Shown one piece after another: positions 1,287 to 28,300 of a stretch of 64,000 nucleotides of DNA; the first letter of the stretch is position 1, and every line of letters starts with the position of its first letter. The translations under genes were made by a program, and so were the position numbers. Location: the NCBI RefSeq assembly GCF_026571515.1, contig NW_026852366.1, positions 124,001-188,000 on the forward strand, in the 5' to 3' direction. The stretch comes from Ruditapes philippinarum (lineage: Eukaryota). The notes beneath the pieces were generated by a model. The model made no database searches and was not told where the DNA came from. It saw only the letters and a list, made by a program, of their open reading frames with translations.

Positions 1287-1606
1287 TAGTTCCGCCCATT
1301 GTTTTCTCGTTTAGGGCACACGCGTTCTATTACTTGGGGACCATACGCCGCTTTTCATGGAATGGCACTACTGTGTCACATTCAAGGTTCCATGATAACC
1401 ATCGTATGTACACATCTGCAGATGTTTATAAATTCAAAATTTCATGTTTAAATGTTGAATTCTGCTTAAGCTGGTGCTAGGGGACGTGGACGGTAGTTCG
1501 CACTTGACGGTATCGTCCATGAACAGGCTCAATCAAAACGAACCTGCAACATTTTCAATTTTGCCGTTTTGTGTTTCTTTGGGTATTCTTGTTTTCTCTA
1601 TTTAGT
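1287..1606 (+). mobile_element. Dispersed repeat insertion (probable 3' part of a V-SINE-like element)
   Basis: Absent at the matching site of copy 2 (~10500) and bounded by the direct repeat tttagt. Its core (ccatgaacaggctcaatcaaa..gaacctgcaacattttc) recurs at 28300-28470 (-) and 48385-48475 (+); its left part recurs at 37540-37740 (-). Confidence 0.65.
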
Positions 1607-2925: not shown

Positions 2926-4712
2926 CTGTCGTAATCGATTTTTCTTGCTGTAAGGTTTGGAGTTACTTTTCGTGCACGTAAGTACGCAAAAGAAGAACGT
3001 CTTTTGGTTATTAAAAAGATATTACAAAATGCCGGTTAATACCAATAAAATCAATTTTATAATCTATTTTGTTTCCGGTCGTACATTCGTAAATACATTC
3101 TCTTATCTGAACGGAATGTATCACTAAAACATGTATAAAGCAAACATGATAACAATTTGTATCTATATTATCTATATTATCTCGATTACAGTTATTCGAT
3201 CAGATATTCTGGAACTATTAAATGAAGAAGCATGATTGTGACTCATATAAGGTTCAAACCAATGATCTATGGATGATTTTTGATACATTGTGCATCTTTT
3301 AAAAAGATATCAATATTTGTATTATTCATTAGCGGGACATAAAATATGATTTTTATTTAGTGCAGACAGCAGACGGCTATGACGCAAAGTCAGTAGGGGT
3401 AATAATAGGAATAGTTCTAATTCCTTTAGTGATAATAATGGTAATTGTCATCATAATTGTCATATGTTTGAAGAAGAATTGGCAAAGTAAAATACATCAA
3501 AGACGAAGAAGTAGAAGAAGCAGAGAAACAAAATCAAGCACAACTAGAACTGTTCATCAACGGGAAACAACAACTACTGGTAAAAATATGCATTAAATAT
3601 TTTCATTGCAATATTATACTCAGTAATTAAATAACGCATTCTTTCGCAAATCTTGCAAACGCCGAGCACTAATATATATATTTGTTAAAACATTAATTTA
3701 AACATTCAAATATTAATAAATTATGTATATTGACAGACACACCAATTGAAAGATTACCAGACATTCAAGAAGAAGACGACACTGCTGGATTGTCTTATAC
3801 GAGCATAACAGATCAATCTAAAGTTACACTTTTTCAAAAAGATACAGTGTCAAGAGATGGTAACGAAGAAAAAGTAGAAAGTGACGAAGAAAAAGTAGAC
3901 AAAGATAAAGTTAACAAGACACAAGAAAAATGTTCAATAGAAATAGAAAGAGTATAGTCAGAATCTGAAGAGCCAGGATCTTCTGAGATAAAAGAAGAGC
4001 CATGTCCATCTGGAGAGGATTTTATCGAAAACACCAGATTGGAAAACGACCCATGTCAGGGTATAAAAAGTGAAGTATCCATTATGCGTGTGTTTGAAAA
4101 TGAAAGTATTTTGATGTACCGTATTTGAATTCTACAAAAAATATTGTCATTGAGTACGACCCGGCTATGACATACAAAAGGGAACGAGAATTGAAATCAA
4201 AAAGTGACGATAGTCTCCATTTAACGTGTATAAGATGTAAAGAAAATGACATCGCTCCTAGAGATTTTGAATTTACCCGAGACGACAGTGACTTGAATCT
4301 CAAATCTCAAAGTAAGATAGAAATTGACGCACAGTTAGAAACAAAGATAACAAGTAGTTCTGAAGGCACATTACTAGACGATAAGAAGAGAAATGCATTG
4401 AAAAGAAAATCATCTTTAAAATACAAAGTGACAAAGAATTCGATTCAATGGAATTTCAATTATGTATCTCCGTATGCATTAACAGATAAACAAAAGCGCG
4501 AAAATAATGAGTTAAAACTCAAAATTCAGAGGCAAAGAAAACAGGCATTGAGAAGAAAGTTCTTCGAGAAAGAGAGAAAGCAGTATGAAAATCATTTAGC
4601 ATTTGAGAAATGGAAACGACAGAAACACGAGACAAATTTTAAACATTATAGACAAGACATATGGTCCATTTACAGAACAAAATTAGATAGCAATATACAC
4701 TGGTATCCTTAG
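2926..4712 (+). pseudogene. Gene A: pseudogene of the 3-exon ectodomain-less single-pass membrane protein
   Basis: Exons 2926-2977, 3361-3579 (TM: GVIIGIVLIPLVIIMVIVIIIVICLKK) and 3737-4712. Compared with gene B: start ATG>CTG (2926), in-frame TAA (2932), TAG (3955) and a frameshifting deletion near 4112. Confidence 0.8.
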
Positions 4713-4749
4713 CCGATTTTTCTTACTGTTATCACTCTAACTTTGTTAA

Positions 4750-5030
4750 AGGGGCGTCCGTGGCCGAGTGGTTAAGGTCGTTGACTTTAAACCGCTTGCC
4801 CCTCACCACTGTGGGTTCGAATCCTGATAGGGACTTTGAATTCTTTCATGTGAGGTCGCTATCCAGCCAGCTTACGGAACGTCGGTGGTTCTATTTAGAT
4901 ACCCTTTCGTGCCTGAAATAATGCGCACGGAAGGGCACATGAAGTCTTCCTCCACCAGTAAAGCTGGAACGTCGCAATGTGACCTATACTGTTTCGGTGT
5001 AACGTAAAACCCAATAAAACAAACAACAAA
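4750..5030 (+). mobile_element. tRNA-derived SINE (resembles bivalve Meta-domain SINEs, from memory)
   Basis: A box tggccgagtgg, B box ggttcgaatcc, conserved body (gctatccagc..gcttacggaacgtcggtggttcta...gtcttcctccaccagtaaagctg) and A/C-rich tail. Absent at the paralogous site ~13738; further copies occur in the window. Confidence 0.85.
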
Positions 5031-5071
5031 CTTTCAACTTTAAAAGAAATGTTAAATTTTTGGAGTTATAT

Positions 5072-7015: not shown

Positions 7016-8324
7016 TTATATGAAATATTAAACGACACAAACGAACGCGCATTTATGCGCTATTTGATTGTTTCAGACCCAGACGTTCCAACATATGCTA
7101 CATAACATACATGTCCGTCATTCAGTTACAGTAAGAGCACGTACCATTCTACAAGTAACACAATATCATCAATTTGTAACTTTTATTACCTTTTTCACAG
7201 AGTAATAAGTTCGCAACGCACCCCATGAGAATGTAATGGAAATATGATTATGATGTACTTAAAATGATTAAGTAAAATTTGGGACCAACGGATTACAAAT
7301 TATATATATTTTTTAGTTACAAAAGAAGTTTTTTTCGGATTTTATTTATACATGTTTGTCTGAATTTCAAAAAATGTGATATGTGTCTCTTAATACTAAA
7401 ACCTTATTTAATAAAATGTATTTTAGGCTTATCAGTATTTTTCTCATTTACATACAGGTACAGTACCCGTTTCAAGCGAGTTTCACTAACCAAATGATTT
7501 TGTTAGTTTATCAGTTTGATATGCAGTGCTTGACTTGCATTTTTAACAATCATCATTAATTAAATGTTCAGAGTATTGATGTAACAAGTAATTTTGTTCT
7601 CTTTGAGTTGAATATCAATCAATAATAATTGTTTTTGTTTGTTTGTTTTTGTTTGTTTTTGATTTTGTTTGTTTGTTGTTGTTGGTTTTTATATATGTTA
7701 ATAGACATCGAAATTTGTGCAGACGACATGATAGTCTAACTCATTTCCCGAGATGACACTTTCGGTCTCACCCTGTGTTGACAGACTGTGTTGTGGTACC
7801 ATATGTGTAATGTTTACCGTGAATACATTTTATTTAACGCAAAATATTAATTAAAAAGTACGATTATAAAGAGATTTTCTGTTACAGTTGGAGGGGAAGA
7901 AACGAATCTTATTTTTTTTAAAAATAAAACAACCAAAAACAAAGAAAAAACACAGACAAATTTTCATGTCTGTTTTATCATTCGACTTATATACAAAAAT
8001 ATTTAAAGAAAATAGTAAATTAAAAACAGTATACATTTTTGTTTAGATATTTCTAAACTATATAGTAATTGTATTGTTTAGCTTTCGCCCCCTCCTTTAA
8101 GCCTTTAACGATTATTTTTTAAACAATAACACGCTTCAAGCTTGATATGTTGTTACACCTTAAATTTCGTACCTTGATATACCCAGCTTTAAACGTTTCT
8201 TTTTGTTTTAATTAACGTATTAAATAATCATTTGTATGAAGTTACACGTCTCATTGGCTTCTTTTGTCTTTTGAAAGTATGACGGAATCTAACGTAAATA
8301 AACCCCAACAGGACTAAATGAAAA

Positions 8325-8373
8325 ATGACGCATAGAATTATTTTGTGGATTTATATTCTACTTATATGCTGAG
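8325..8373 (+). pseudogene. Gene C': signal-peptide exon of the duplicate of gene C, with a nonsense codon
   Basis: Reads MTHRIILWIYILLIC* followed by g|gtaatt; CGA>TGA at 8370 relative to 15059-15107. Confidence 0.7.
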
Positions 8374-8784
8374 GTAATTTTAAAGGATCTATTTTAATAT
8401 GTTAACAAGTTAAATGTTGATGCTGCACATCAAAGACGCCGCCAAATGATGTAAACAGATACAGGTGATGTACAAAATCAGAATTGAAAATCGTTCTCTT
8501 TTCCGAAGCACTTATTATTTTTTCTCCATGTTCTTGGTATGTGTCTGAAATTCTGAAATGTTTGTCTGTTGCGACAAAGATTGAAACGTCTGGTCGAAGC
8601 AAAATAGATTGGATAATAAGTGAAAGTGAAATGATTGGTAAACTTAAAATAAATTCAAGACAATATGTGCCTAGAATATGTCCATTTAAATATTGGTGCG
8701 AATTGCTTAACGTTCGAATGATTTTGAGGACGAACTGTCTGTTTTTTTACAAATAGCGAAAATATGTCTGTAATATCAAATAAT

Positions 8785-8968
8785 NNNNNNNNNNNNNNNN
8801 NNNNNNNNNNNNNNNNNNNNNNNNNNNNNNNNNNNNNNNNNNNNNNNNNNNNNNNNNNNNNNNNNNNNNNNNNNNNNNNNNNNNNNNNNNNNNNNNNNNN
8901 NNNNNNNNNNNNNNNNNNNNNNNNNNNNNNNNNNNNNNNNNNNNNNNNNNNNNNNNNNNNNNNNNNNN
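8785..8968. other. Assembly gap (N run)
   Basis: Run of n characters. Confidence 1.
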
Positions 8969-9232
8969 GACTCGGTTCGTATTTTTTCCAGGGGTGTGTT
9001 TAAATGTAAACATGACAGTTCTGTTAGCTGAAGAGACTTCAGCGAACATCAAAATAAAAGTGACATTTAAAGTGATGGAAGCCAGTTCTCATAGTTTAAC
9101 AAAGAGGAATATGAGTATATATGAAGATGCATGTACACAGATAGAATGAAGTCCCTATGTCTATGCACATTTACTATATGACCTGTTGACCTTGACCAAA
9201 AAAAATGTTAGATCTGTAGAATTCATAAAAAT
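8969..9232 (+). repeat. Copy of IGHMBP2 intron-6 segment 51040-51303
   Basis: Near-identical over ~260 bp (ccaggggtgtgtt...gacagttctgttagctgaagagacttcagcgaacatc...gtagaattcataaa). Confidence 0.9.
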
Positions 9233-9742
9233 GTATCACCAATGCGGGAGGGACAGAAGTTTGATTCTATGCAATCAAAAGAAACGCCAGCAAGAGATAT
9301 TACTCCGCCATTTAAAACAGAATCAGTGTATGTAGCTCGTCCAGCATTACCAAGTGAGAATACAAAGACAGTTCCAGTATTTGATGATATAATAATGGAT
9401 GAAGATGTGAATTATGCTTTACGATATTCTTCAAGGATGCAGCATGTCAAGAATGAATGGCATGAACAAAAGAATTCTGGGAGTTCCCCTCTTATAACAG
9501 AGAAAACAATAATATTACCGTCGTCTCCTAACGACACATCGAGGAATAACAGCAGAGGTATCAGTATAACTGATATAGCAGAAACGCAGATGCTAGATAT
9601 CAACAGTAATAACACTATGTTATCACCATTTAATAGTTTGGATACATCAACGAAAACCGGAAACTTTGCAGACGGCATTATTGTCTCCCCTGTTTCTGAG
9701 ATGTCACTACCAGTATCCCCCTCAGATAGTACAATAACTTGA
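9230..9742 (+). pseudogene. 5'-truncated terminal exon encoding a Ser/Thr/Pro-rich low-complexity tail (166-aa ORF)
   Basis: Clean ORF 9242-9742, but the upstream continuation present in copy 1 (1-130) is replaced by the IGHMBP2-intron-like fragment. Confidence 0.55.
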
Positions 9743-11777
9743 AAAATGTGATATGAATAGGCTAACAGTATATTGAATGATTGATGTTTCAAATTCTGTA
9801 TTTTTAGGTTATTAAATACAAAAATATAATTCGAGTTTGTGGCATCAAATAGATGAAGCAGTATAGGAATAAGATATAATATTCTGATTATTACAATCTA
9901 AAAACAGTGACCGTAACAAAACAAAACATTTTCATATCTATATGTACGTATTTCTTTGTACGCTTTCTTTATATGCATGATTATGACGTCACGTTAAATT
10001 ATACTTATGAATACTGCCGTGCAAAATCATTTCTGTAGAGTGGAAAATAATCTTTTAATGTATAATATATTGGACAATCTTGGGGATCTTGTTTGTTAAT
10101 GAAAAGAGTCATTATTTAGAAAACTTGACTCCATTATATTGCCTTTTTATATTCCGTGTACACTTTCCAATATATCATCATAAAATTAATGAAGGTTGTT
10201 GTGTTTAGTTTTTCTATTAATAATAACTTATGTTACATGATTACACAGATGTTTTCATGATTTTCCACGTAAGTTTCTTTTTTTGTAAATGCATAAATTG
10301 CAAAACATATTAATATATTTATATTTATATGGATTGCATTTATCATCCAATATAACAATTGCATTTATAATCCAATATGACGAGTGCAGTGCAATATCTT
10401 ACTAATAGGATGGAGAGTTATTGTATCAAAATGATTCTTTTCATTGTTATTTACGCGAATGACCATACTTTGCAAATTTAAATTTGCTAATATGTACTTC
10501 AGTCATAGTAAATTTTGTTATTATCGATACTATCGTCATCCTTTAACCCTACATGTCCGCACTTGCAAGTAGCAAGATATGTATACTTAACAAGTTTGTT
10601 TAGTGTACATTAATGTTTACATTTCAGCATATGCTTTAAATTGCTGTATAGTTGACTAAGAATTGTAATATTTTGGTAGGTATTTCATTCTCATTGTTTT
10701 AATATATAGACACACCGTTTTCAACCAAAGTCATACTACATTTAGTGCACTTTTAAATCGTGTTAATCAATAGTTTGATGTTTGTCTTATATCAACAAGC
10801 CATGGACAGAGTGTATAAACCTTCATAATGCATTTCAATAAGTACATTGTTAATCAAATATAATTAAGACATTTATCTAAAGAAAATTCGTTTTTAAAGA
10901 AGCAATAAGTATTTCATTGCACCATTAAACCCCATTTGAATGTATTGATATTTCAATTTACATTTTTACATTTGAAATATCAGTCTGAGAATAGTTCCAT
11001 AAAACGAACACTAAGATCATCTAATATCTAACCCCCAAAAGACCATCAATTTACAAATAATCATTAACATCAACAATTTCTTAATCGTTATTCATCAATG
11101 CATCATGCTTGTTCTTCAACTTTTGAAAAGATTTTAACAATCTTGTTTTCTATATACACTTACAAAGGAGGAAGTCTTCCTAGATTAATTGTTAAGCAAG
11201 TCCATTTTTGAAATTTAGCAGGGAATCAGTATATTTAGTTAACAACTTGTATAAGATTACACACCTCATTGAATACTTTTGTCTTATAAAAGTTATTATA
11301 CTATTTGGTGACACGGAAGTTCGTTCGTTAATACATTGGATTTAATGAATTGTCGATAAAATAATTTAAAAGCATGACACAAAAAATTAATATATGGATA
11401 ATCATGTATATGTTACGGATAAGTCTAGGTAATTTAAAAGAAAGTATCTTTTAAAATTTGTATTGATAAATAATATGTATTTAATAAATCTTGCATCCAT
11501 AAGTATCAAATTTACAAATTTAAAAGTATCTTACTATATTTAACATTAACGTAAATACTTTCTAAAAGATGCATTTCCTATAAATCGCATTGAAAAGTGT
11601 CAGAAATATTTTTTCTATACTGGTCCGCGCTTTGCGTTTCCATTTCGTAATCTATTTTCAAAGATGTCACTGTTTTGCGCCAGTACATAAAATGCTGGTT
11701 GTCATTAAAAGCATTATTCAGAAAGATATGGGTGGAATAATATTGGAATTAAAACTAAGTCTATTTTTCTGCCGTTA

Positions 11778-13703
11778 ATGTCGTTATCGCTTTTTCTTGC
11801 GGTAAATTTTGGAGTTACTTTTCGTGCACGTAAGTACGCAAAGAAAGAACGCCTTTTGTTTATCAAAAAGATAGTACTAAATGCCGGTTAATACCAATAA
11901 AATCAATTTTATAATCTATTTTGTTTCCGGTCGCACATTCGTAAGCGAAATACACTATATATGGACGGAATGTATCACTATAACATGTATAAAGCAAACA
12001 TGATAACAATTTGTTTTTATATTATCTCGATTACAGTTATTCGATCAGATCTTTTGAAACTATCAAATGGAGAAGCATGGTTGAGGCTCATATGAGGTTC
12101 AAACCAATGATCTATGGATGAGTTTTGATACATTGTACATCTTTAAAAAAATATCAATTTTGTATTATTCATTAGCGGGACATAAAATATGATTTTCATT
12201 TTAGTGCAGACAGCAGACGGCTATGACGCAAAGTCAGTAGGGGTAATAATAGGAATAGTTCTAATTCCTTTTGTTATAATAATGGCAATTGTCATCATAA
12301 TTGTCATATGTTTGAAGAAGAATTGGCAAAGTAAAATACATCAAAGACGAAGAAGTAGAAGAAGTAGAAGAAAGCAGAGAAACAAAATCAAGCACAACTA
12401 GAACTGTTCATCAACGGGAAACAACAACTACTAGTAAAAATATGCATTAAATATTTTCATTGCGATATTATACTCAGTAATTAAAACGCGTTCTTTCGCA
12501 AATCGCACTAATATATATAATTGATAGTATTAAAGATTTCTATTTTAATTTTTGTGGCCACCTGTATAATAATGCATTTTTAAGTGATTTCTGATTCCAA
12601 ATCCTGAATTTTAATCATCCTTTGAGATTAACACGTTGAATATTTCGTTTTTTTTTAAACATCAATTTAAACATTCAAATATAAATAAATTATGTATATT
12701 GACAGACACACCAATTGAAAGATTACCAGTCATTCAAGAAGAACACGAAACTACTGGAGTGTCTTATACGAGCATAACAGATCAATCTAAAGTTACACTT
12801 TTTCAAAAAGATACAGTGTCAAGAGATGATAAAATGGGTGAAAGTAACGAAGAAAAAGTAGAAAGTGACGAAGAAAAAGTAGACAAAGATAAAGTTAACA
12901 AGACACAAGAAAAATGTTCAATAGAAATAGAAAGAGTAAAGTCAGAATCTGAAGAGCCAGGATCTTCTGAGATAAAAGAAGAGCCATGTCCATCTGGAGA
13001 GGATTTTATCGAAAACAGCAGATTGGAAAACGACCCATGTCAGGGTATAAAAAGTGAAGTATCCATTACGCGTATGTTTGAAAATGAAAGTATTTTGAGG
13101 AAAGATGTACCGTATTTGAATTCTACAGAAAATATTGTCATTGAGTACGACCCGGCTATGACATACAAAAGGGAACGAGAATTGAAATCAAAAAGTGACG
13201 ATAGTCTCCATTTAGCATGTATAAGATGTAAACAAAATGACATCGCTCCTAGAGATTTTGAATGTACCCGAGATGACAGTGACTTGAATCTCAAATCTCA
13301 AAGTAAGATAGAAATTGACGCACAGTTAGAAACAAAGATAACAAGTAGTTCTGAAGGCACATTACTAGACGACAAGAAGAAAAATGCATTGAAAAGAAGA
13401 TCATCTTTAAAATACAAAGTGACAAAGAAGTCGATTCAGTGGAATTTCAATTATGCATCTCCGTATGCATTGACAGATAAACAAAAGCGCGAAAATAATG
13501 AGTTAAAACTCAAAACTCTGAAGCAAAGAAAACAAGCATTGAGAAGAAAGTTTTTCGAGAAAGAGAAAAAGCAGTATGAAAATCATTTAGCATTTGAGAA
13601 ATGGAAACGACAGAAACATGACAAAATTTTTAAACATTATAGACAAGACATATGGTCCATTCACAGAATGAAATTTGATAGCAATAGACACTGGTATCCT
13701 TAG
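11778..13703 (+). CDS. Gene B: 3-exon ectodomain-less type I membrane protein; exon 2 is frameshifted as assembled
   Basis: Exons 11778-11829 (MSLSLFLAVNFGVTFRA, donor gtaagt), 12205-12433 (TM) and 12706-13703 (intact tail ending WYP). Exon 2 is 229 nt versus 219 nt in A (extra agtagaagaa), giving a stop at 12399. Confidence 0.7.
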
Positions 13704-15058
13704 CCGATGTTCCTTGCTGTTATCTCTCTAACCTTGTTCTTTCAACATTTAAAAGAAATGATAGATTATTGCAGTTATAAATTATATTACAATTAAACGA
13801 CACGCGCATAAATGCGTAATTTGATTTGTGTCAGACCCACATGTTCCAACCTATGCTATATTACATGCATGGACGGCATTTAGTTATATTGTAAGACCTT
13901 GTGACATTTACATGTAACAAAATATTATCAAATTTAAACTTTTATAAGCTTGATCACAAAGTAATAAGTTCGCAAACGCACCCAATAAGCATTTAATGGA
14001 AATGTGATTATGATGTACTTAAAATGATCAAATAAAATTTGGGACCAACGGATTACAAATTATATTTTTTTTACTTACCAAAGAAGATATTTTCGGATTT
14101 TATTTATAAATGTTTGTCTGAATTTCAAACAAAAAATGATATTAGTCTCTTATTACTAAAACCTTACTTTATAAAATGTATTTTAGGCTCATCAGTTTTT
14201 TCATTTACATACTAATACAATACCCGTTTCAAGCGAGTTTCACTTAACTAGTTTCACAAATGATTTTGCAAGTTTATCAGTTAGTTATGCGGTGCTTGAC
14301 TTTTTTAACAATCATTAATTGAATGTTAAGAGTATTGATGTAACAAGTAATTTTGTTCTCTTTGAGTTGAATATCAATTATAATTGTTTTTGTTGTTGTG
14401 GTTGTTTTTTTATATATATTAATAGATATCGAAATTTGTGCAGACGACATGATAGTCTAACTCATTTCCCGAGATGACACTTTGGGTCTCACCCTGTGTT
14501 GACAGACTGTGTTGTGATACCCATATGTGTAAAGTTTACCGTGAATACCTTTTAGTTAACTCAAAATATCAATTAAAAAGTACGATTATAAAGAGATTTT
14601 CTGTTACAGTCGGAGGGGAAGAAACTTATCTTTAAATTCTTTAAAAATAACACAACCAAAAACAAAGAAAAAAAGTTTAAAATACACAGACACATTTTCA
14701 TGTTTGTTCTTTCATTTGACTTATATACGATAATATTTAAAGAAAATTGTAAATTAAAAACAGTATACATTTTTGTTTAGATATTTTTAAGCCATAGCAA
14801 TTGTATTGTTTAGCTCCCGCCTCTAACCTCAAGCCCTTTAACAATTATTTAAACAGTAACAAACTTCAAACTTAAAATGTCGATACGACTTAAATTTTGT
14901 ACCTTGATATACCCAGCTTTAAACGTTTCTTTTTGTTTTTATTCACGTATTAATAATCACTTGTATGAGCTTACACGCCTCATTGGCTTCTTTTGTCTTT
15001 TGAAAGTATGACCGAATCTAACGTAAATAAACCCAAATAGAACTAACTAAAATAAAAA

Positions 15059-17579
15059 ATGACGCTTAAAATTATTTTGTGGATTTATATTTTACCAATA
15101 TGCCGAGGTAATTTTAAAGGATCTATATTAATATGTTTATTATTTTCTGCACTTCATTTTATCCTAGCATTACTCAAATATTTTTTTTTATTTACAAGTT
15201 GTAAGCCACATAAAACCAAAGTACGTCAAATTATGCCTAATGGTTTTTTCCTTTGATAAAATATAATTCATGCAGATTCGACCAGTTTCATATCTTTTAA
15301 TAGATAGATAACAAAAAATAAAAAAGAACAAATTTATACTTGATACTACATAATATTCTTGAAAGTTATATTCAAAGTGCATGTAACTGAATTGAAAATT
15401 GAACATGCATGAACTTAAAAATGATTGAATTACGGAGGCGTCCTGGGTGACCTAACGTTTTCGCTATAAGATATATTACCATCCTCCAGTAAACTAGATC
15501 CAAATAAGATAAATTTCGATAAAGATATTTTTCTTTGTCAAGAGTTGGATAAGACTGAATTTATTTGATATGGGCACTATGTTATAGACTATGAAATGGG
15601 CAATTCAACTAGCCCTGGTAGACATTTATTTTTGTTGTTGTTGTATTTTTTTGTTGTATTTTCCTGAGATGCTCCACTTTTTCATGCCTCATGAATATTC
15701 TCTACTTGCTCTTTTAATCAAAGCCGTTTGATATGATTTTAATTTACCGATTAACAGAAAGAAATGTCATTTGTTTATTAAAATGTGTGTTGTCGCATAC
15801 TGTCTGATATAGTCAGTTACTTTTGTATTATATATAATCTTGTTTATCCCGATCTCAAATTTATTAGACAGGATCTAAAACAAAAATGCATTCCATTCCA
15901 TGGATCCACACAAGATATTGAAATATTCATTGAATTACATAAGAACCTTTACAAAGTAATTATGATTAATGCAATGAGATAATTTACACGTATTTTCCTT
16001 TTGCTTTTTGTATTAATTTATCAATATATACATTGGTATATAATTTGCTGAAAGATTGCTATATGATTTATATTTTAGTGCAGTCTGCAAACGGTTATGA
16101 TGTGACGTCACCAGGAGCTATAATAGGAATCGTTCTAGTAGCTATTGTTATAATCACGGCAATCGTCATCATAGTTGTCATCTGCTTGAAAAAGACATGG
16201 CATAAACAACGAAGACAAAATACAATATCAAACAAGACAAAGAAAGTTCCAAAAAAGCCAACAACGATTTCAGGTGAATACAGTCATAACATAGAACTTT
16301 ATTAAAAGTTAAATATTCAATATATTCCCTTCTGTTAATCTTTATTGTAAACGGTATGCGGGTGCATAATAAAATGGTTTTCTCATTCATCTTATGTAAT
16401 ATGGTGTATCGTCTTTTTAAATAATTAGTTACAATTGTTGTAGAACTGTTATAATGTTATAATTTATGGTGCCATTTAAGTTGCAATCCATATTTTTATC
16501 TTAAATTAAAATGTAGATTGTGTTTGTTTAGAATTTCTTTTCACAATACATAGAAGCAATATGTAAACCTGAATTTATGTACATATATTTTAGAAACGCT
16601 TATCGAAAAATTGCCTGACATCCCAGAAGTAGACGAAAATATAAGTGCGTCTGGTGTAAGCGTAAGAGATGAATCTAAACTAACGTTTTATCAAATTGAC
16701 AATGAGGCAAGCACTACTGAAGCGGGTGACATTGATAAAGAAAATGAAAAAGTGGAACAATATGAAGCTAACAAAATAAGTGAGGATATGACTGTCTCAG
16801 TGAAAACCGATAAGATACAAACACAAACTGAAGAATCAGAAACATTTGAGAGCAAACCAGATGAACCAAAGTCATCTGGTGAGGATTTGGTAAAGACAAT
16901 CAACTGTGAAAGTGAAACAACACAGGATATAAAAAGTGAAGTATCCATCACACGTGTAATTGAAAATGAAAATATTTTGAGGAAAGATTTACCTTATTTA
17001 AACTCTACAGAACACATTTTCTCAGAATATGATCCAGCTATGACATACAAATCGGAGAGTGAATGGAAATCAAAGAGTGACGAAGGCTTACATCTACAAT
17101 CGATCAGATTTGAGAGAAAAAATATCGCTCCAAGAGCTTTTGAAATAACTCGCGATGACAGTGATTTGAATCTCAAATCTCAAAGTACGATAGAGGTTGA
17201 AATGCACGAAGCAACAAAGGTATCCAGTCGATCCGAAGGAACATTAACTGATGATATGAAAATAAAATCATTGAAAAGAAGATCATCTTTAATATCTAAA
17301 GTAACGAGCAAATCATTCCAATGGAATTTCGATTATATATCTCCATATGCAATGACAGATAAACAAAAGCGTGAGCGTTATGAGTTAAAGCTTAAAATTC
17401 GTAAGCGAAGAATGCTAGCATTGAAACAAAAGTTAGCTGATAAGGAAAGACAACAGTATGAAAATAAACTAGCATTTGAGAAATGGAAACTACGAAAACA
17501 GGGCGAGAAACATTACGAAGGAGACATTGGGTCTTTTAACAAAAGAAAATTTAATAAATATAATTACTGGTATCCGTAA
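15059..17579 (+). CDS. Gene C: intact 3-exon, 409-aa type I membrane protein with a minimal ectodomain, acidic tail and C-terminal coiled coil
   Basis: Exons 15059-15107 (MTLKIILWIYILPICR), 16079-16273 (TM GAIIGIVLVAIVIITAIVIIVVICLKK) and 16594-17579. Both introns are phase 1 GT-AG; 1230 nt open frame. Confidence 0.8.
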
Positions 17580-18378
17580 TCAATGACTTATTATCATTTA
17601 TCCTCTCTAGAATATATTCATTTACTTCAGTGTGGAAGAATAAATACATTTCCACAACGTTGAAAAGTCATAATCATGCAAGTATATAATACTTTATGAT
17701 AAAAGTAAACAAAAAGTACTAGTATCATCTTATTTATTTGAAATCCACAAAGCCAGCAAGTACGTTCGAACACACAAAAAATATGCAAAATAGCATGAAA
17801 TAATGACAAATATTGTAATCTCTAAAACAGTATCAAACGTGCGAAATAAAATGCTGATTTACACAAACGTAGTACATTGAAATACTCGTCTGATAGCATA
17901 CATATAATTAAAGAACATAATCTCACAGGACAACTAAAATTTCAGAAACACATATCGTTTATCAAAAATGTCTGATTTCTTCACTAAGGACAAACATAAT
18001 ATCTTTTAAATATATATTGAATAACAAGTTTTGTTTAATACTATAAGCGTCCGTCTAAATCATCAAATAATGAATCGGCTATTCCTTTTTACATTAGTAA
18101 CTATGTGTTTCAATTCCAACAAATGCACGACAAACAACTTGAACTAAAAATATGTTTTATGCTGCCTCCCTCTCTTGTTATTTATGTAACGATTCATACC
18201 TATTTTACATCTGGGACATACAACTTGCAATGCTACCAATTTAGTTATACGTATATGACTTAGTTTGATAAATTTATTTTGCATAGAGAGTTCAATGTTT
18301 AGATTTAGGCTGAAAAAGATTAAAGTCCAGTACCAGACGTAATTTGCTTGCGTTGATCCTTTAAGAGCGGGTTTTTTT

Positions 18379-21300
18379 TCAAGTTGGATACCAAAATGTA
18401 CTTTTTGCTTTCTCATAAACATTTTCTAAGCTTTTATTTTTCGCCGTTGTTGTCTTCATTTTACTCTGTTTCCACTTTTCAAATGCTAACTGATTTTTTT
18501 GAAGTCGCTTCTCCTTTTCTTTTTCTTTTTGTCTTTTAATTTGCTCTTTCTTCTTTTTTAATTTTACTCTTTTATCAATGATATCTTGCTTTTGTTTATC
18601 AGACAAAGCGTATGGAGATCTGTACACAAAATTCCATTCGAGAGGTTCATAAGATATCTCTGAAGATATACGTGTCGAATTCCCTTTTTCTATAGCATCC
18701 ACTAAGTTTCCTTCAGACTTATGCATTCTGTCTTGTGTTTTAATTTTACTCATTGTTTTATTGTCTGTTTCCATATCCAGAGCACTATCATCTCTTGAAA
18801 ATACGAAAACATTTTTCTGATTATTTTTATTTTCTACACAGTCTATTATAATACTTAAGTCGCTTTTAGAAATGTTGTAATTTTCAGTCTCATTAGTCAC
18901 AGTGGCATCAAAGTCAGAAAAGATATTTTCTGTAGAATTCAAATGTGGCATATCTTTTCTTAATGGTTTTTCGATTTTCGTGATACGTGTTACAACTATT
19001 TCGTCACTTTTGTTTTCTATAATGTTCTCGACGTCATTTGAATCTAAAGGCTCGACAATATCATCAGTAAGTTTACTCCCACAAGAAACGTTCCCGTTCA
19101 ATTCCTGGTTAGCAATACAAGGTACACTGCATTTACCTAGTATTATATCCTCTTGGGTACATTCAGTTGTATTTTTATCAGAGTTTATGGTAGAAGTACT
19201 CATCTGCCCTGATGTTTTGTGATCAGGTCTACTCATTTCAAGTGATAAATCAAACATGTCATCATTGTTGAACTGCGATCGTTCGTCTTTATTATTAAGC
19301 GATTTTCCTTGTGTCGCGGTTTCGTCATTGGATGATAGTGTCGTTTGAATACCATTGTTAATATACAATTTCTCTTTGCTTGTTTGGTTTTTTGGTTCTT
19401 CGTTAATAACTTTTTCTAAAAGGTATGATTTTAAAGTGAATGTATGTTAGTTCAAACTTATACACGTATACTAACGATATAAATTCAATTTCGTATAAAC
19501 TTGTCTGTCAAGACTTTCTTAAAGTTAGCTAAGTTTTTACCGGTCATTTACCTAGTGCAAGGAGTCTCAATAATTAATTTATACACATTAAAATGTTGGG
19601 GTTAATTTAAGTTAATAAAACGATAGTACCTGAAATAATTTCTGATGTGTCGTGTTGAGATGAAATTCTTTTCTTCTGGTTGAAGGTACGTCTCTCTCGA
19701 CAGCATTTCCCTTTCAAACAGACGATCATATTTATGATGATAATTGTCAACACGAGTGTGCCTATGACAATGCCAGCAATTGCTGCAGCGGAAAGTCCAT
19801 TGCATGGTCCTTCAGCTCGTTTGGCTTGTAGAAAAACATCAGTAGATGTATTAATATTATATTGCTCTCATCACTCATATATGTATAAGTTAAATATATA
19901 TAAACAAAAACGATAAATACATAGACAAATGTATTTAAAATCTGATTGTCATGTATAGGAATTTCATGAAAATCATGTATACCAGAGGAAAAGCAAATAT
20001 TAAAATCTATCGAGATATTATACTTATAATATTGAGAGCAGACACTTAATCTGTATTTTGTGTTATTTCAGTGAGTACAGTCAAGCAAAACGGAATCTGT
20101 AATTCTTTCTTTTTATCATTTTTCTCAGGCACCCTATAATACACTGTACCAAAATATTTTTTTTCTCTAAGATTACATCATACATATGCAACATCCTTCG
20201 TTATCAGAATAATAGTAATAAATAGAAAATGTAAACTTAAGCTTTTAGCACAGTGATCTATTTATCTTTCAGACAAGAAAATAGTCTTTATGTTGGTATG
20301 TTGTTATGTACAAGAGCTTTTACTGATTCAATCACTTACGACACAGCTCTGAAAAAGAAACAAAAAACGAGAATTGTCATAGTGCACTAATTGAAATGTT
20401 TTCAATATCATATGAGAAACAACTGATTATGTTTTAGACAATACTAAAAACGATATTCATATCGAATCATTTGTAGAATAATGATAATCACTTATTACTG
20501 TTTAAGTCATACGATACTAAATGCGTACATATGGCAATAACAAATTTAACACAACTGTACATTACTTGCAATAAACACTTTAGTCCAAGGAATTTACCCT
20601 GTAAATATTTGTACTTACTTCTTGGTGTAAGTTGCATGTTCAGTCCTGCAGAAGACATATTGGAAGCAAACACCGGTTGTTCAGAAGGTGTTTGTCCCTT
20701 TCTACAGCTTCCTGGAGTTTGTGAAACATTGAGACTCCCGTCAGAGTTTCTACTTGATACCTAGATGCAATTTTAAAATGTTATATCTTTACAGCTCAAA
20801 TATTAGCAACAAGTAAAAATGACATTTATTAGAATTGTAGATGCGACAAATGATTCAAAATTGAAACGTGTTGCAAGGATCTAAACTCATATCAAGCTCA
20901 AATAGCAGGGAGATTTTTAATTTATTCTGCGTATATTTCTTAAATATCTTTTGCATCCATTTTCTGTTTTAAGTGCCCAAAATAATGAATGTAAAAATAT
21001 TCAAATTTTGTGACCTTACTGGAGTTAAGCTAAATAAAACATGTTTTCTGAAGACAGATTATATGAACGTACCATGCATGTAAATCTATGTGTACCATTT
21101 GAATGATTCACAAAATTATCTTCATTATACAGGGTGTGATATGTGTAGCTCCCAAATGTTAGAGTAAAAACACAAAATACACTTCCATTCCCTTAAACAG
21201 AAAGCACATTTATAGCGATTTATAATGTAACACATATGCAACCCTAAATAAAGCATGGCGATGAAAACGTAAAGCACTGAAGATAGATATGTATATTTCA

Positions 21301-24300
21301 GCTGCAAGAAAATATAGACAGATTTTGAATAGTTACATCATCTTGCCTGACGAACTTCAGCACATTTAAACTAAGAAAGAAGTAGCGTGTATTTTTATTA
21401 TGGATTTATTCAAATTACCAAGGAAACTGCATTATCATTTAATTAATGTAAAATAAGAAATTATGTAAATTTCGTAATCACTTAAAAGTAATTAACAAAA
21501 TCGTGTAGTTTTATCAATTGTTTTGAAAATAAGATGGCACAAAAAGGCAACCTTTTCTTGACTACTTCTAAAACATATCATTCAAATAAATATATGCTCG
21601 TAGTATTTTCGAATTATGTATGTTCTGTAAAGAAAATCCTAGTGGTAATGGTATTTGAGAATAATCTTTTCACCAGAATAAGAAATCTTTGTATCACAAA
21701 TAGTGTAGTTGAATGTCATTCGCTCATAATCTGTACAGACATCCCAAACTTCGTTACCAGTCCCGCAATAGCTATTCTTTGATTCTAAATCTTTGACAAT
21801 GTAAAAATATTCTCCGAAAAACGTCGATGGACATTCTTGTTTAGCGAACACTTCACTTCCTGAAAGATACAGTCTAACTCAGTTGGTAAGTACAATGTAC
21901 GAACATAGCTGATTATATCCTAACTTGTTTGTAGAGTAAAATACAAAAAATAGAATAAATGGAAAAGATAATATTTGTTATGCAGTAGTGCCATCACCGT
22001 CATATGATATCAATATGGTCATGCAAGATTCAAGATATATGTTCATAAACATTGACGCTGACCTTTACTACACTCCACTTTTGTTTTATACAAACGTTTC
22101 AATGATCAACTGAACCACGGTTTATGACATGAACAATTAAAAGTATAAAGTTTGTTTGGTATTTAGATTGTATCTATTTCAAATTTGTATTTATTTACTG
22201 TAAAGATCGCAATGCATGACAGATATGCGTTAGAAGCAAGCGTATTACTTATTATTAATCTGTATAATAAAGATAATTTGTATTATAGTTACAAATAAGT
22301 AAAATGATGAATCAACTGTAAAGAAAAATACATAATCCTTTTTAAATGTACATGTATATGTATTTTCAGAAAATATATTTGATGAATTTATATAGATATT
22401 AAACATTTGTTTGAGATTTCTTACCTAAATAATTATAGCAATTTTAAATATTTCTTTTGACTAGCAATGCAACGACACTCAATATAAACAGTAGATAATA
22501 TTTTATCATCTCTTAACACACAAATAGCTTTACCTTGTTTGACAAGTACATGATATTCGCCAGTTTCTGGAAATTCTGCTGCTTGTGAAGCGGTTTCTGT
22601 ACTAAAACACAGCTGTTTTACTGGATCAGAAACTACTGTAGACGAAAGAGTTGCCGATATCCTCTCATATCGATATTTCTCCTCTTCAGCTTAAAATAGT
22701 AACATCTTGCTTAAAGGGTAAATTGCATATATTCTGAATGAATATGATTACTTAATGAATAAGTTATTATTAATTAATCTTACAATGTACTCGTGGTTGT
22801 TAAGGTTATCTACTACTACTATTTTACTTTTAATTCATTTTTAAAACATACAAGTTGGCATTACCAATGCATTCTTATTGTACAAGCATGAAACGTAAAA
22901 TTACAACAAGTGAATTTAATGAAACATTATATAGTGTGATACAGGGTGGTGTATGCATTTACAGATTGCTCCAGTTTACTTACAGCTGTTTTGCAACACT
23001 TAACTGGTATTAAACAACCAGAGAATGGCATGATAATTTAATAAATCTGATTGATATATTGATTAATTTCAACTTACCCCACAAAAGATAGTAATAATAT
23101 GATTGCGATGTTATTTCTTTCAATTCCATACACAAGTAAGCTGTATACGGCGCACCTAGTATTGTGATGTTCTGTGTTTGTCTTAAACGTAAATTTTAAC
23201 TTTTAATGCACTAAATGTTAAAACATATGATGCTTTCTTGTAAAATCAACTGTTAGCCTTTGATTGCCATATACAAGTGAGCGGCAAAGTAAATAATAAG
23301 CATTGAAATGCTTTTCGTTTGTCAAAACAAATAATAAATCATATTGAAAATTCCTTCTATTTTTTCTGCTGACTGTTCCAAAGTCAGAAATACAAAGCAT
23401 TGTGAAAACTATGTTAAAATTGACAAATAAAGCGTAAAATTTGCAAACAAAATTGCAACAATGCCCTTTTCTATTTTAGCTCTGAAAATGTTAACCATAT
23501 CTACCGCGTTTGGTGCTACATGCACATAGTACGAGAAACTTTGTTGTCTCTAGTCGCTGACTCTTTGCTCTTATTTCTATTGAACTGATCGTAAAAGACC
23601 ATGTTAAAGATTAATATATTCAATTCCGATAAGTCGTAAATAGATAAATAAATAAAAGACCAATTTAAAGATTAATCAATTTCTATAACTTGTATCTAAA
23701 TGAATAAATAAAAGACCATGTTAAAGATTAATCAATTTCGATAACTCGTATATAAATGAATGAATGAATGAATGAATGAATGAATGAATGAATGAATTAA
23801 TTAATTAATTAATTAATGCCAATAATTGATAAACGTTTATTTTATCAGTTGACTATAATAGCAGAATAGTTTGATATTTTGTTATATTTCATGTACGTGC
23901 GACTTTAAAATGCAATGATTGAACAGAATAAGTAACATAGAATTCCTTACACCATGATGAGGAGGAGTTTCGTTGAATCAGTACTAGTATGCAGACATTC
24001 CCAATTCTCAAACAAGTCCCCGTTTTCTGTTTGAAATTCCCACCCTGTCATGTTAGTGGTGCTAAACTTCAGCTCCCCTTTATCGCTGTCAATCCAAACC
24101 GAGTTTTGGAATTGCTCCGGTAATTCACAAAATGAGGCGATCTCTGGAATTTGAATATTAATCACATCTTTACCATACTCATTACTACACTTCTTGCTAC
24201 TGATACATTTGTTTTCCACATTTATGTGGGTAAATTTAAAATATATCTTAATGTGGAGAATCTTCAACATCATTTGTTTCTAAACCAACTTTCAGGACAA

Positions 24301-24793
24301 ATGCCGTGAAGTTGGTGAAAGACTTACACATGCATGTAATATTATGATCATTTCTTGATTGTCAACCATGCCAGTCAATCAAGCCAAGTTCAGAATGTGA
24401 GTAACGTATACATAATATACATTTATATGGGCAAGGATAATAAAAGAACAATTAAAATGAAAAGAAAGCAAATAAAATCAAATTGATGACGACGACGGTT
24501 ATGCTGATGGTTATGAAGAATTTTCTTTCAATGCCCATCATAGAAAGATACGACAGGTATAATATATAAAAACTATATACAACTATTATTGTATCAGATA
24601 TTTTATTCCTAGATTAACACATAAAAAGGTATATTTGTATCAAATATAAAATTTGTACGTTAAAAAAAGATTATCTCGCACGTTGTCTTAAGAAATAAAG
24701 ATAATATTATATTGTATAATTTATAAGAAAATCAAAACACATACCTCGGAAAAGATGAATAATAAGGATCCACATATAAAGAAAAAATAACAT
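18379..24793 (-). CDS. Gene D: 10-exon, 729-aa type I membrane receptor-like protein (Cys-rich DUF7042-like ectodomain, TM, tail homologous to genes A-C)
   Basis: Exons 24793-24745, 24143-23951, 23181-23078, 22689-22534, 21859-21674, 21191-21073, 20760-20619, 20348-20340, 19824-19630, 19415-18379. All GT-AG, 2190 nt open frame. Exons 3-8 match gene E exactly in length. Confidence 0.85.
23614..23818. repeat. Triplicated ~60-bp unit followed by a (tgaa)n/(ttaa)n microsatellite
   Basis: aaagacca..ttaaagattaat x3, then tgaa x~9 and ttaa x~5. Confidence 0.8.
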
Positions 24794-25366: not shown

Positions 25367-28300
25367 ATGGAAGTTTTGATTTATTTAGGGATATTAAATA
25401 TTTTTCTCCGACAAGGTAATAACATAAGAATTTTTTATTTGTTTATTAATCATAACTTATTAGTTTGTGTTGTAAAATTGTTGACTTGGCGGACCTTGCT
25501 GAATTATTTTTTTTAATTGTGCATCTTAAGGTGTAATAAATTGCTTCAATCTGAATACATCCTAAATAATCTCTGCGCAAATCACCGTTTCCTTGAAGTA
25601 AATGTATATTTTTCAAGATACTTCTTTGATAGCTAACATGAGGTAGAAGCAGGGTTGAAGCAGTACCCCTGTTACCATGACATATATCAATTATGATAAA
25701 AAAGTAAGATCGCTAATTCAATTAGTTATACACAGGGGACGTACCATACTTGGATCGTATTACGTTGTTATAAAAAATAAGTAGAAGATTTCCATATAAG
25801 CTATACCATTTGTTCTTATTTCAGGAGCATCCGCAGCATGCACTTTACCTGAACAATTCCAAAACTCGGTTTGGATCGACAGCGATAAGGAGGAGCTGAC
25901 ATTTAGCACTACCAACATGACAGGGTGGGATTTTCAAACTTTAGGCGTTAGTACCGTGTATGAAGAATGGGAATGTTTCCATACCAGCAATGAAGGTTCA
26001 AAGCTATATCTTATAATGATGTAAGTTAAAAATGTATAGTTTCCCCAAACAAATAATTTGAAATATTTCAGTGTAACTGATGCTTATCTTCAAAGCACGT
26101 TGAAACATTTACTTTTTGTGTGCTTTATTTGTTAATTATTTTGTAATTGAGAGCAATATTACAGAACTTTCTTACTTTATTAACGAACTGTTTTTTTTTA
26201 AATGAGGCAATATAAGGTACGATATGCTTTTGATATAGATATTTTGAACTCTATAACTGTATTACGATTTGGATTTGATATACATGTATATATTTTAGAC
26301 TTATGCTATAATAATGGGGCACGATACTGATAATGTATCTGATAATTTCTAATGGAAAATCACGAGGCTAAAATGCTGCAAATTCATTGGTAGAATTTAT
26401 AAGGTGTTGAATAAATGTTATATCATTAGAGTATATTTCATATTTCAACATGACAAAAATGTCTTACTTACTTGATTTATTTCATTTTTCATTTTAGAAT
26501 TTTTCTCATGCTTCTTTCAATTTAAGTTAAGAATTTGTATTCAGTACAATGCAGATCATATTAAAGCTATATCAAATTACACATCTTTTATGAAATTCAT
26601 AAACCGATAAAATATTTTGTTCGGTTCTTGACAGAATTGTAACTAAAAATCATGGATATGTTACTTACATGTAACACACATGAAATTAGTACGTTAACAG
26701 AATTGAAATAGCTTGGACAAAATAATATATGTTTTCAACCATTTAAAATGATTTTATGCATGTGCCATCCCATTATAAGGAAAACGTTATACAAACACAT
26801 TTCATTCATCAAGGTATTTTAAATGTATTCGTTTCTAAACACTAAATTTGTTAACTCCAGGTGGCAAATGTATGTATGCAGTTGTGTACACTTTAAATCA
26901 AACACCTATGCTTAAACGTAAACTACATGTCATTTTGATAAGTTCAAAAAGTAACATTATTCTTTCACTGATATTCTGTTGCATTTTAATTATGGTAATT
27001 GGACGAGAATAACACACAACTTATTTTATAACAGAATTGCTTTAAGAGTTAAGATTCGCTAGTAGTATATTTTGTCCATGCTTGTTACCGATTTTGCTTA
27101 ATAAAAGTTAAAAAGGGGGCTTAGTTACATTTTCATACAGGAATGGTACGACGAAATCTGTTTTTGGTTTGGGTGAACAATTTCAATTTATAGCATGGAA
27201 AACGATATAACAATGACATTTTCCCGTAAGCACACATTATAACGTACGAAGTACTGCCTTAAATTTATTCATTTAAATGTACTTGAATCAAAGTTGTTTT
27301 TTAATATTCTGGTATGCAACGACTAACAGTTTATGATACAAGAAACTATTAATTGGATTAGATTTTATTATTTATTTCATAAAATTTCGTTTCAGACAAA
27401 CACAGAATATCACAATACTTCAAGAAACATATACAGCTTATTTGTGCATGGAGTTAACGGAAATAACCTCGCAATCATATTATTACTATCTCTTGTGGGG
27501 TAAGTGACAACAACTTAAATTCGAATTGATATGAACATCTGCCTCAAAATCAGATGGATACAGAAAAAGCACAATAATCGCCCATAAGAAATATGAAGTT
27601 TTGTGTCTGAAATGGTACAGGACAAAAGGTCTCATAAAAGTATATTTTATATGTTAAATTACCAATTCATTTAGAAAACAAAGCGTGGGATGAATAGGAA
27701 GTCAATTTGATGGTATAAAGTCCTAAGCACTGCGCCAGTTCATATATTTTGCAGTGTTTAAAAGAACTGTTTAGGTAGAATATGCTATAAACCTTTTGGT
27801 TTCCACTTGTATAAGTCGCGTTTTGTATTTTCATCGCGTGTTTACACCACTTAACATTAGCGGTAAGATGAAAAATATATTCAATATTTATTGGATGAAG
27901 TTGATTTCTAAGTACAAGTTATAACGGGTATGTTTCGCAAAAAAAAAAACTGAGTATATAGCATAATTCATTTCGTCGTTCCAAAAACGAACCTAGACGT
28001 GTGTTTTTGTTTTCTGTTTTAATTTATACCAATGCAATAATTTGTTTCTGAACTAGCGGAAGAGGAAAAATACCGTGAAGAGAGAATATCAACAACGCTA
28101 GCTTCTATGTCGGTATCGGACCCTGTACAGCAGTTATGTTTTACCACAAGTAACGCTGCCCAAGCAGCGGCATATCCGGAAACTGGTGAATATCATATAC
28201 TTGTAAAACAAGGTAAGGCTTTCAAATAGATATAAATGAAACTATGTACTATTACATATATATACATTGTTTGTTAATAAATATATTTCGAAGTCTCTGC

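Follow-up and report, generated by a model that had tools for sequence, protein, structure and literature searches.

The membrane proteins encoded by two convergent genes of Ruditapes philippinarum, here called C and D, carry at the end of their cytoplasmic tails a module that, judged from its sequence, almost certainly shares ancestry with the first repeat of CCDC181, and that, by analogy with MAP9, would act as a low-affinity membrane-to-microtubule tether, a reading to which we give a probability of about 0.55. The window, a stretch of 64,000 nucleotides, holds four copies of the module, A, B, C and D (Table 1), and its preliminary description, which had proposed a CCDC181-like coiled-coil module linking membrane and microtubules, is partly supported. 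That part of a soluble protein of sperm and cilia has been reused, in two separate families of the clam, as the cytoplasmic terminus of membrane proteins is well supported, and it offers a candidate for linking membrane and microtubules directly.

The module in the four copies

The WNF-x-Y-x-SPYA motif and a C-terminal WYP were observed in A, B, C and D, within a single open frame in each, confirming the motif as it had been described; D ends in WYPT and the other three in WYP. In the four-copy alignment 28 of 93 columns are invariant, and none of 2000 shuffles per copy reached the observed motif score, so that the shared motif is not a product of chance. The Phi, W and K of a Phi-x-x-W-x-x-x-K element are also invariant across A-D. 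Since the last exons of A and B are 94% identical at the DNA level, making these two near-duplicates, the copies amount to about three independent sequences, not four. The WYP, previously taken to be invariant, is so inside the window only: it is present in six of ten other proteins with this type of tail (tail-1) and in none of eight proteins with tail-2, the tail of a second clam membrane family that carries the same module. It was also considered as a second tryptophan repeat and rejected, lying 27-30 residues past W in A-D and not fitting the motif.

Gene models and membrane topology

C was modelled as a spliced type I membrane gene of 409 aa, and D as one of 729 aa with a DUF7042-like ectodomain, the 729-codon frame of the latter being stop-free. 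The features of type I proteins are present as predicted, namely a hydrophobic N-terminus, one transmembrane helix with basic residues after it, and a tail on the same transcript, the joints coming from separate contigs, none of them transcript-long. Transmembrane hydropathy values are 3.5-3.9 in P0003, P0007, P0008 and P0009 (3.71 over 19 residues for the helix of gene C exon 2 in P0003), and the module exon is spliced to the transmembrane exon, in agreement with the type I setting proposed before. The 3' ends of C and D converge, as had also been stated; poly(A)-type hexamers lie at 17639 on the plus strand and at 17733 on the minus strand, and contigs of run X1 extend to 17714 on the C side and to 17753 on the D side. 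Raw reads of X23 and X24 (4-5 in 100 per run) gave an exon depth of about 3 or less and none of the listed joints.

The ectodomain of D is assigned to DUF7042 (PF23069) by proxy, through the orthologue P0008, which its exons match exon by exon over the ectodomain at 57-79% and which carries PF23069 at E=7e-10, above the cut-off; fold prediction of the ectodomain from a three-row alignment gave a mean pLDDT of 35, too low for the model to be of use. Among single-pass proteins of this type, those encoded by the neighbouring DUF7042-type genes of the same cluster differ in having unrelated tails without the module, and no paper with the term DUF7042 was found. Two X1 joints, 21845-23078 and 23181-24029, are non-canonical and were discounted, as they probably reflect reads cross-mapped from the paralogue at 25.8-34.4 kb. 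Gene B displays one extra base near 12371, missing from an X1 contig and from one X24 read. Gene A is broken: it carries a TAG at 3955 and has lost 7 bases relative to B. Within tail-1, the second motif is better conserved than the module, with 75% identity to the Mercenaria orthologue (residues 201-240) against 38-58% for the module.

Table 1. Positions in the window of the features of genes A-D
Feature	Position	Strand	Evidence or remark
Gene A module and WYP, broken duplicate of B	4449..4712	+	
Gene A landmarks: W of WNF / S of SPYA / Phi of Phi-x-x-W / WYP	4449 / 4467 / 4602 / 4701	+	sequence
Gene B transmembrane exon; last exon	~12205-12432; from ~12706	+	
Gene B module, WYP and stop	13440..13703	+	
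Gene B landmarks, as for A	13440 / 13458 / 13593 / 13692	+	sequence
Gene C exon 1, signal-peptide-like hydrophobic start	15059..15107	+	three-exon model = P0003; X1 joint
Gene C exon 2: ~10-residue ectodomain, transmembrane helix, basic juxtamembrane stretch	16079..16273	+	hydropathy, joints
Gene C last exon, cytoplasmic tail-1, 5' intron phase 1	16594..17579	+	GT..AG joint, X1 and X2 contigs
Gene C second conserved tail-1 motif, absent from CCDC181	16950..17048	+	
Gene C CCDC181-type module: WNF-x-Y-x-SPYA, ~40-residue basic helix, Phi-x-x-W-x-x-x-K (17475-17498)	17322..17498	+	
Gene C C-terminal WYP and stop	17568..17579	+	WYP not invariant in family
Gene C landmarks, as for A	17322 / 17340 / 17475 / 17568	+	sequence
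Gene D last exon, tail-1, WYPT end, 5' intron phase 1	18379..19415	-	joint in X1 and X2
Gene D CCDC181-type module	18460..18636	-	
Gene D landmarks, as for A	18636 / 18618 / 18483 / 18393	-	sequence
Gene D transmembrane exon	19630..19824	-	
Gene D ectodomain, 8 exons: signal-peptide-like exon, six DUF7042-type cysteine-containing exons, 9-nt microexon (20340-20348)	20340..24793	-	X1 joints

Homology of the module to CCDC181

A profile built from five membrane-protein tails, with zero CCDC181 included, produced 34 matches at E<=0.001 in 1.84 billion proteins. Sorted by sequence outside the module, these are 16 CCDC181, 11 tail-1, 5 tail-2 and 2 unassigned proteins, and an ungapped spacing of 45 residues is kept in all 34; named CCDC181 records were reached at E 7.9e-7, 2.5e-5 and 1.2e-4. 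Alignment of the four window tails with 26 CCDC181 by hhalign gave a probability of 98.2 and E=4.9e-14 over 69 columns. The likeness, for which the preliminary description had pointed to a similar spacing, consists of an SPY-type block followed by the 45 residues that lead to the first Phi-x-x-W-x-x-x-K, and its SPYA form agrees with CCDC181 from molluscs, brachiopods and nemerteans, not with the forms in the records examined from fishes, echinoderms and hemichordates. In the clam itself, CCDC181 is P0070 / L024. Unlike CCDC181, the tails are membrane-anchored, hold one repeat instead of three, differ at the C-terminus, have a much more basic helix and are without the N-terminal blocks; none of the 11 tail-1 matches resembles CCDC181 outside the module, and an hhalign match spans 82 columns only.

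Convergence, or a Lys/Glu composition bias, might also produce such a likeness, and would be consistent with the loss of significance when the helix was X-masked in the target only, the model being unmasked (E 0.98-32 for A-D), with the weak unrelated matches that were all Pfam returned for the tails, and with ESM Atlas leads for C that all stayed below 0.9, one of them a cluster with CCDC34 on 13% of its members. On the contrary, a profile with the charged helix neutralised in both model and target recovered A-D at E 6.3e-6, 1.2e-5, 3.5e-4 and 5.3e-4 (Z=30000), the best of 1224 decoys having E=19 and three other tail-1 proteins remaining weak (E 0.12, 0.15 and 3.4), and a fixed-spacing 14-column score gave 35-38 bits for A-D, where 2000 shuffles of each copy never exceeded 14.3 and 20,880 background positions never exceeded 8.0. 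The expectation that a profile match would survive bias masking thus held for these two forms and not for the target-only mask. Moreover, the clam CCDC34 exon, which encodes a genuine charged helix whose tryptophan repeats are similar, scores -10 bits (E=1500), every one of the 34 profile matches has the two-block pattern, and tail-2 shares an extra upstream motif with CCDC181, all of which leaves this explanation highly improbable and already largely refuted.

Regarding CCDC34 (PF13904), whose family had been named as a further possible relative, the tails resemble it in having tryptophan repeats within a charged helix, but they give no PF13904 match at E<=10, their orthologues give none, the clam CCDC34 exon is without the SPYA block, and the sole PF13904 match in the genome lies elsewhere. 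Full-length CCDC181 is matched by PF13904, at E 1e-8 to 9e-3 in all five longer CCDC181-type proteins scanned. A profile of the four copies alone retrieved no CCDC181 among 4544 candidates in a word-based search, ESM Atlas returned nothing usable for tail-2, and neither three profiles nor the CCDC34 exon found anything significant among PDB sequences, MAP9 not appearing in the profile searches.

Helix and tubulin-type repeat

The Phi-x-x-W-x-x-x-K in which the module ends is the beta-tubulin-binding repeat that the available text of PMC12667982 defines for MAP9 by cryo-EM. As in MAP9/ASAP (PMC12667982), it is placed on a long single helix, here a predicted one covering residues 37-93 (~57 residues, core pLDDT 96-98), whereas MAP9 is soluble and has five repeats 35-36 residues apart; the likeness drawn here is one of motif. 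Foldseek with the helix model gave 0 matches. One Dreissena relative has been automatically named 'MAP9-like', which is a label only. Three such tryptophan repeats occur in 25 of 28 CCDC181, one occurs in all four window tails and in 17 of 18 other tails, and no tail has two; CCDC181 repeats are separated by 41 residues (repeats 2-3) or 33-67 (repeats 1-2), a spacing unlike the 35-36 of MAP9. Among papers that name two of CCDC181, CCDC34 and MAP9, none, judged by its title and the opening of its abstract, treats the presence of three MAP9-type repeats in CCDC181, and the main text of the MAP9 preprint (PMC12667982) has no mention of 'CCDC'. CCDC181 is presented in the accessible part of PMC11491787 as a mouse male-fertility gene with few domains assigned, and the natural truncation, because it isolates one repeat unit, marks the likely minimal functional unit of the protein.

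The module helix is predicted to be strongly basic and free of a heptad pattern, its net charge being +11/+12, against 0 to +4 in CCDC181 and +3 to +7 in tail-2, and its hydrophobic fraction at a/d positions in the best register, by a simple count, 0.36-0.50 in A-D and 0.23-0.43 in five CCDC181; the coiled coil proposed earlier is not borne out by these values. Such a charge, together with the better-conserved motif that the tail has of its own and with the rapid duplication and broken copies of the family, would suit a captured helix repurposed as a generic basic element, one for binding acidic lipids, for self-association or for nuclear import once the tail is cleaved, with the CCDC181 appearance as a relic. 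A basic helix would nonetheless have no need of the strict 45-residue spacing found in the 34 matches, and the less basic tail-2 keeps the same anchors, so that we consider such repurposing quite unlikely.

Proposed function

In the tethering reading, C and D are single-pass proteins whose tail-end module likely grips the outer surface of the microtubule. By a MAP9-like mode, Phi and W would be packed on beta-tubulin and K paired with an acidic residue, the helix would lie across the lattice, and the fixed module length, like a ruler, would place the SPYA block at a distance of about one protofilament. Loss of two of the five MAP9 repeats is given in PMC12667982, as far as its available text goes, as lowering binding by ~80%, and by these data a lone repeat should bind weakly; added positive charge and clustering in the membrane might offset the two lost repeats.

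The invariant residues occupy the exact tubulin-contact positions of the MAP9 repeat, which argues against a module related by descent to CCDC181 that recognizes some partner of CCDC181 other than tubulin, such as a trafficking adaptor or phosphatase, and acts as a sorting signal to cilia or the spermatid manchette. Also against it, the HOOK1-binding region of mouse CCDC181 (residues 393-448) is probably on repeat 2, which is absent from the tails, when placed by counting from the C-terminal end with the spacing in fish and a mouse length that we take to be ~509. In its favor, the CCDC181 partners printed in the accessible parts of PMC12123824 and PMC11491787 are HOOK1, LRRC46 and PP1, a single repeat would, from the MAP9 data (PMC12667982), bind microtubules poorly, and nothing corresponding to the SPYA block appears in the available MAP9 text (PMC12667982). 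On balance, a non-tubulin partner appears rather unlikely.

The tethering mode, that of a single-pass protein with a cytoplasmic microtubule-binding segment, is shared with CLIMP-63/CKAP4 and p180, ER membrane proteins whose segments are unrelated to the module. The clam proteins differ from them in being type I, in the cysteine-containing ectodomain of D, and in an effector that probably derives from a ciliary or sperm protein. The ciliary or sperm site suggested earlier for the tail proteins is only tentatively proposed, and we would not count on it. CCDC181 itself is located on manchette, flagella and the base of motile cilia in the accessible part of PMC11491787, which relays the hypothesis that it reaches manchette microtubules via HOOK1, not directly, and in whose text a microtubule-binding part of CCDC181 was not located.

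At its most extended, the proposal would make of these proteins a clam family of 'transmembrane MAPs', in which CCDC181 repeat 1, bolted to surface proteins, clamps the membrane of cilia or sperm tails directly to the outer doublets. In D, the DUF7042 ectodomain would join this clamp to an outside ligand or to a neighboring cilium, as in the compound cirri of clam gills. The picture is improbable as a whole. If true, it would supply a molecular candidate for the membrane-doublet bridges of scallop gill cilia, ascribed to a dynein-like ATPase in the accessible part of PMC2110547, and would imply a MAP9-like mode of microtubule binding for CCDC181 and CCDC34.

Tail-2 and a probable origin by exon capture

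Every module exon starts in phase 1, and the CCDC181 exon ends 27 codons past W while the tail-1 stop lies 30-32 codons past it, an exon phase and a truncation point that fit capture of the long CCDC181 exon. In an ancestral bivalve, a copy of this long phase-1 exon would have come to be spliced to a preceding transmembrane exon, leaving repeats 2 and 3 behind, and we regard such a capture from CCDC181 as probable. Tail-2 aligns with CCDC181 over 103 columns, and an RP-x-T motif upstream of the module is present in six of eight tail-2 proteins and in 25 of 25 CCDC181; the tail-2 gene P0009 showed weak tblastn matches (E 0.14 and 0.40) to the DUF7042 ectodomain.

In trees of 60 columns, tail-1 and tail-2 each form one side of a starred branch. 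Tail-1 groups with the CCDC181 of Mya, Dreissena, Mercenaria and Ruditapes at 79/94 with tail-2 in the tree, and at 79/98 when two long rows are omitted, tail-2 then being placed elsewhere; the grouping was never starred. AU tests rejected no topology (p 0.42-0.50), and trees of this length resolve neither the donor nor the number of captures. Named records with such tails come from Venerida and Myida only, a narrow range that limits the interest of the finding. The family duplicates fast, with broken copies.

Four tail-1 gene copies in the window

The last exons of A, B, C and D all terminate in the motif ascribed to them in the preliminary description, namely a WNF-x-Y-x-SPYA block, a Lys/Glu helix, a second block and a final WYP, within AT-rich DNA of animal type. 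The stretch from the WNF block to Phi-x-x-W-x-x-x-K in the second block is called the module below. Of the 93 columns in their alignment 28 are invariant; among these are the second-block residues F, W and K as well as the terminal WYP. A and B share 94% DNA identity in this exon, and gene A is broken, with a stop that comes too early and 7 bases deleted.

In contigs of sequencing run X1, presumed RNA, the two C introns and the nine D introns all appear as joints with canonical ends, while one C intron and three D introns were seen in run X2 from a separate study; both transcript chains rest on adjacent joints, no single contig spanning a whole transcript. The joined C frame (409 aa) is identical to the Ruditapes philippinarum protein record P0003, and that of D (729 aa) has no internal stop. 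In C, a hydrophobic start and ~10 outside residues precede a transmembrane helix, which is followed by a ~350-residue tail; D has an additional cysteine-containing ectodomain of ~300 residues, matching Mercenaria P0008, a DUF7042 carrier. Orthologues are P0007 (C-like) and P0008 (D-like) in Mercenaria and P0050 in Dreissena, both genera within Neoheterodontei. Three different tails are paired with DUF7042-type ectodomains and tail-1 is found both with and without an ectodomain; the gene cluster looks modular in make-up.

Positions of features in the window
Feature	Position	Strand	Remark
A last exon	4104-4712	+	ends in the motif
B last exon	to 13703	+	ends in the motif
C last exon	to 17579	+	ends in the motif
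D last exon	to 18379	-	ends in the motif
Second tail-1 motif (in C)	16950-17048	+	matching stretch in A, B, D
D microexon	20340-20348	-	9 nt, held in one joint; gives cysteine at ectodomain end
D paralogue	25826-34434	+	head-to-head; same ectodomain exons at 75-85% DNA identity; tail unrelated, without module
Segmental duplicate	131-8403 / 9229-15137		83-94% identity
N run	8785-8968		
Tandem array	5080-7010		in first duplicate; units ~160 bp
Similar arrays	45369-46675, 56750-57762, 62915-63713		
Helicase-like gene exons	50584-53345	+	superfamily 1, judged by eye from ORF list; presumably IGHMBP2-like

Homology of the tails to CCDC181

The homology of the tails to CCDC181 is well supported. A profile made of the four window tails and the module of tail-2, a second clam membrane family, with zero CCDC181 sequences in it, gave 34 matches at E<=0.001 among 1.84 billion representatives, which were sorted by sequence outside the module into 16 CCDC181, 11 tail-1, 5 tail-2 and 2 unassigned proteins (P0022 and P0029, the latter grouped with tail-2 in the repeat, WYP and RP-x-T counts). 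An NCBI name of CCDC181 or CCDC181-like is carried by 3/16 of the CCDC181 class, names having been looked up for 18/34 matches, most of them unnamed. Comparison of the four tails with 26 CCDC181 in hhalign yielded 98.2% and E=4.9e-14, the clam's own CCDC181 (P0070) was found independently as a weak genome match, and the four-copy profile alone recovered zero CCDC181 in a word-based search. An aromatic residue stands exactly 45 positions after S of SPY in 34/34 matches, and convergence is a very improbable source of the CCDC181 likeness. The CCDC181 link of the preliminary description is borne out. A match to the CCDC34 family, which it named beside CCDC181 for checking, is not supported: Pfam CCDC34 does not match the tails, although it does match full-length CCDC181, and the clam CCDC34 exon receives a fixed-spacing score of -10 bits. 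This exon (L006, G000:C6855) has two strict repeats of the Phi-x-x-W-x-x-x-K type and further tryptophans 41-47 residues apart.

Controls for composition bias used 25/28 CCDC181 sequences, the three without an ungapped module being left out. They showed that (i) when 14 columns that exclude the charged helix are scored at fixed spacing, A-D reach 35-38 bits, where 2000 shuffles of each stay at or below 14.3 and 20,880 background positions at or below 8.0, (ii) a helix-neutralised HMM detects A-D at E 6e-6 to 5e-4 (Z=30000), the best of 1224 decoys being at E=19 and three other tail-1 proteins being weak, and (iii) with only the target X-masked and the HMM unmasked, A-D lie at E 0.98-32. The match withstands the first two treatments and loses its significance in the third.

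A to D belong to none of the CCDC181, CCDC34 and MAP9 families; they are membrane proteins of chimeric make-up, bearing a single repeat unit of CCDC181. No prior description of such proteins was found among the literature matches listed, which included PMC2110547 and came from a collection with few subscription journals.

A single MAP9-type repeat on a predicted charged helix

According to a cryo-EM preprint on MAP9, Phi-x-x-W-x-x-x-K is a repeat that binds beta-tubulin and sits on one helix crossing protofilaments; MAP9 has five, at intervals of 35-36 residues, and binding falls by about 80% when two are lost (PMC12667982). In the mammalian transition zone, MAP9 is also located on the B-tubule (10.64898/2026.06.11.731632). 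By our own count, three such repeats occur in 25/28 CCDC181, whereas each window tail and 17/18 other tails contain exactly one. Repeats 2 and 3 of CCDC181 (P0070 / L024, G000:C2271, in the clam) are spaced 41 residues in 24/25 sequences.

AlphaFold2 predicts one helix over residues 37-93 of the last 109 (core pLDDT 96-98). The "coiled coil" of the preliminary description is a wrong label, because this helix shows no heptad stripe and is strongly basic in tail-1 (net charge +11/+12, against 0 to +4 in five CCDC181); a single charged helix describes the module better.

The most probable reading, plausible by analogy with MAP9 and put at roughly 0.55, is that the module grips the microtubule surface, in line with the membrane-to-microtubule linker proposed previously. 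The single MAP9-type repeat would provide the grip together with a basic face and the SPYA block, set at a constant distance; the ~250 residues between last-exon start and module, mostly disordered by prediction in the Dreissena relative, would supply reach, and membrane clustering avidity. Published work places CCDC181 at manchette, flagella and ciliary base (PMC11491787), with HOOK1, LRRC46 and PP1 as partners (PMC11491787, PMC12123824), and passes on the view that it binds the manchette indirectly (PMC11491787). That the module instead serves as a sorting signal for some partner other than tubulin appears unlikely. Repurposing of the helix as a generic basic element also seems unlikely.

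WYP terminates 4/4 window copies and 6/10 other tail-1 proteins, against 0/8 in tail-2 and 0/4 among the CCDC181 C-termini inspected, some proteins lacking it being automatic gene calls, perhaps incomplete. Its alleged invariance thus holds within the window and not beyond; WYP is a subfamily feature rather than part of the CCDC181 module, and is possibly a C-terminal ligand motif.

Origin of the module exon

The tail-2 protein P0009, encoded elsewhere in the genome, is a second membrane protein that bears this module, while the rest of its tail differs; its transmembrane exon is spliced to the module exon in contigs of runs X1 and X7, and tail-2 aligns with CCDC181 over 103 columns (hhalign). 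A long CCDC181 exon with a phase 1 start has the module at its 3' end and extends 27 codons past W. B, C, D and P0009 likewise have last exons with a phase 1 start, the tail-1 stop comes 30-32 codons after W, and an RP-x-T motif ~40 residues before SPY occurs in 6/8 tail-2, 25/25 CCDC181 and 0/10 tail-1 sequences. Capture of the long CCDC181 exon behind a transmembrane exon fits these features and would explain why the tails received repeat 1 alone. Exons that follow a transmembrane exon often start in phase 1, which makes the phase by itself weak evidence for capture. Trees of 60 columns set tail-1 beside CCDC181 of the same clam lineage, with no starred support, and are compatible with either one or two captures.

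Other observations

An additional tryptophan, 30 residues ahead of the repeat W, is invariant in the tail-2 protein (P0009; L005 / L030, G000:C1082), whose database model lacks further upstream exons. The second tail-1 motif (~33 residues, two tyrosines) has no Pfam match and is not present in CCDC181; it is better conserved than the module, with 75% to the Mercenaria orthologue and several invariant columns in 13 sequences. The segmental duplicate may have arisen by tandem duplication or may represent a second haplotype; it contains a frameshifted E-type tail, gene A in its broken form and a copy of the first C exon that is interrupted by a stop. After about 34400 the window resembles a low-quality uncorrected read. 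Just upstream of the window, tandem DUF7042-type genes (L007 and L008, G000:C853:104001-124000) encode products in which a threonine-rich stalk and a transmembrane helix are combined with a third type of tail.
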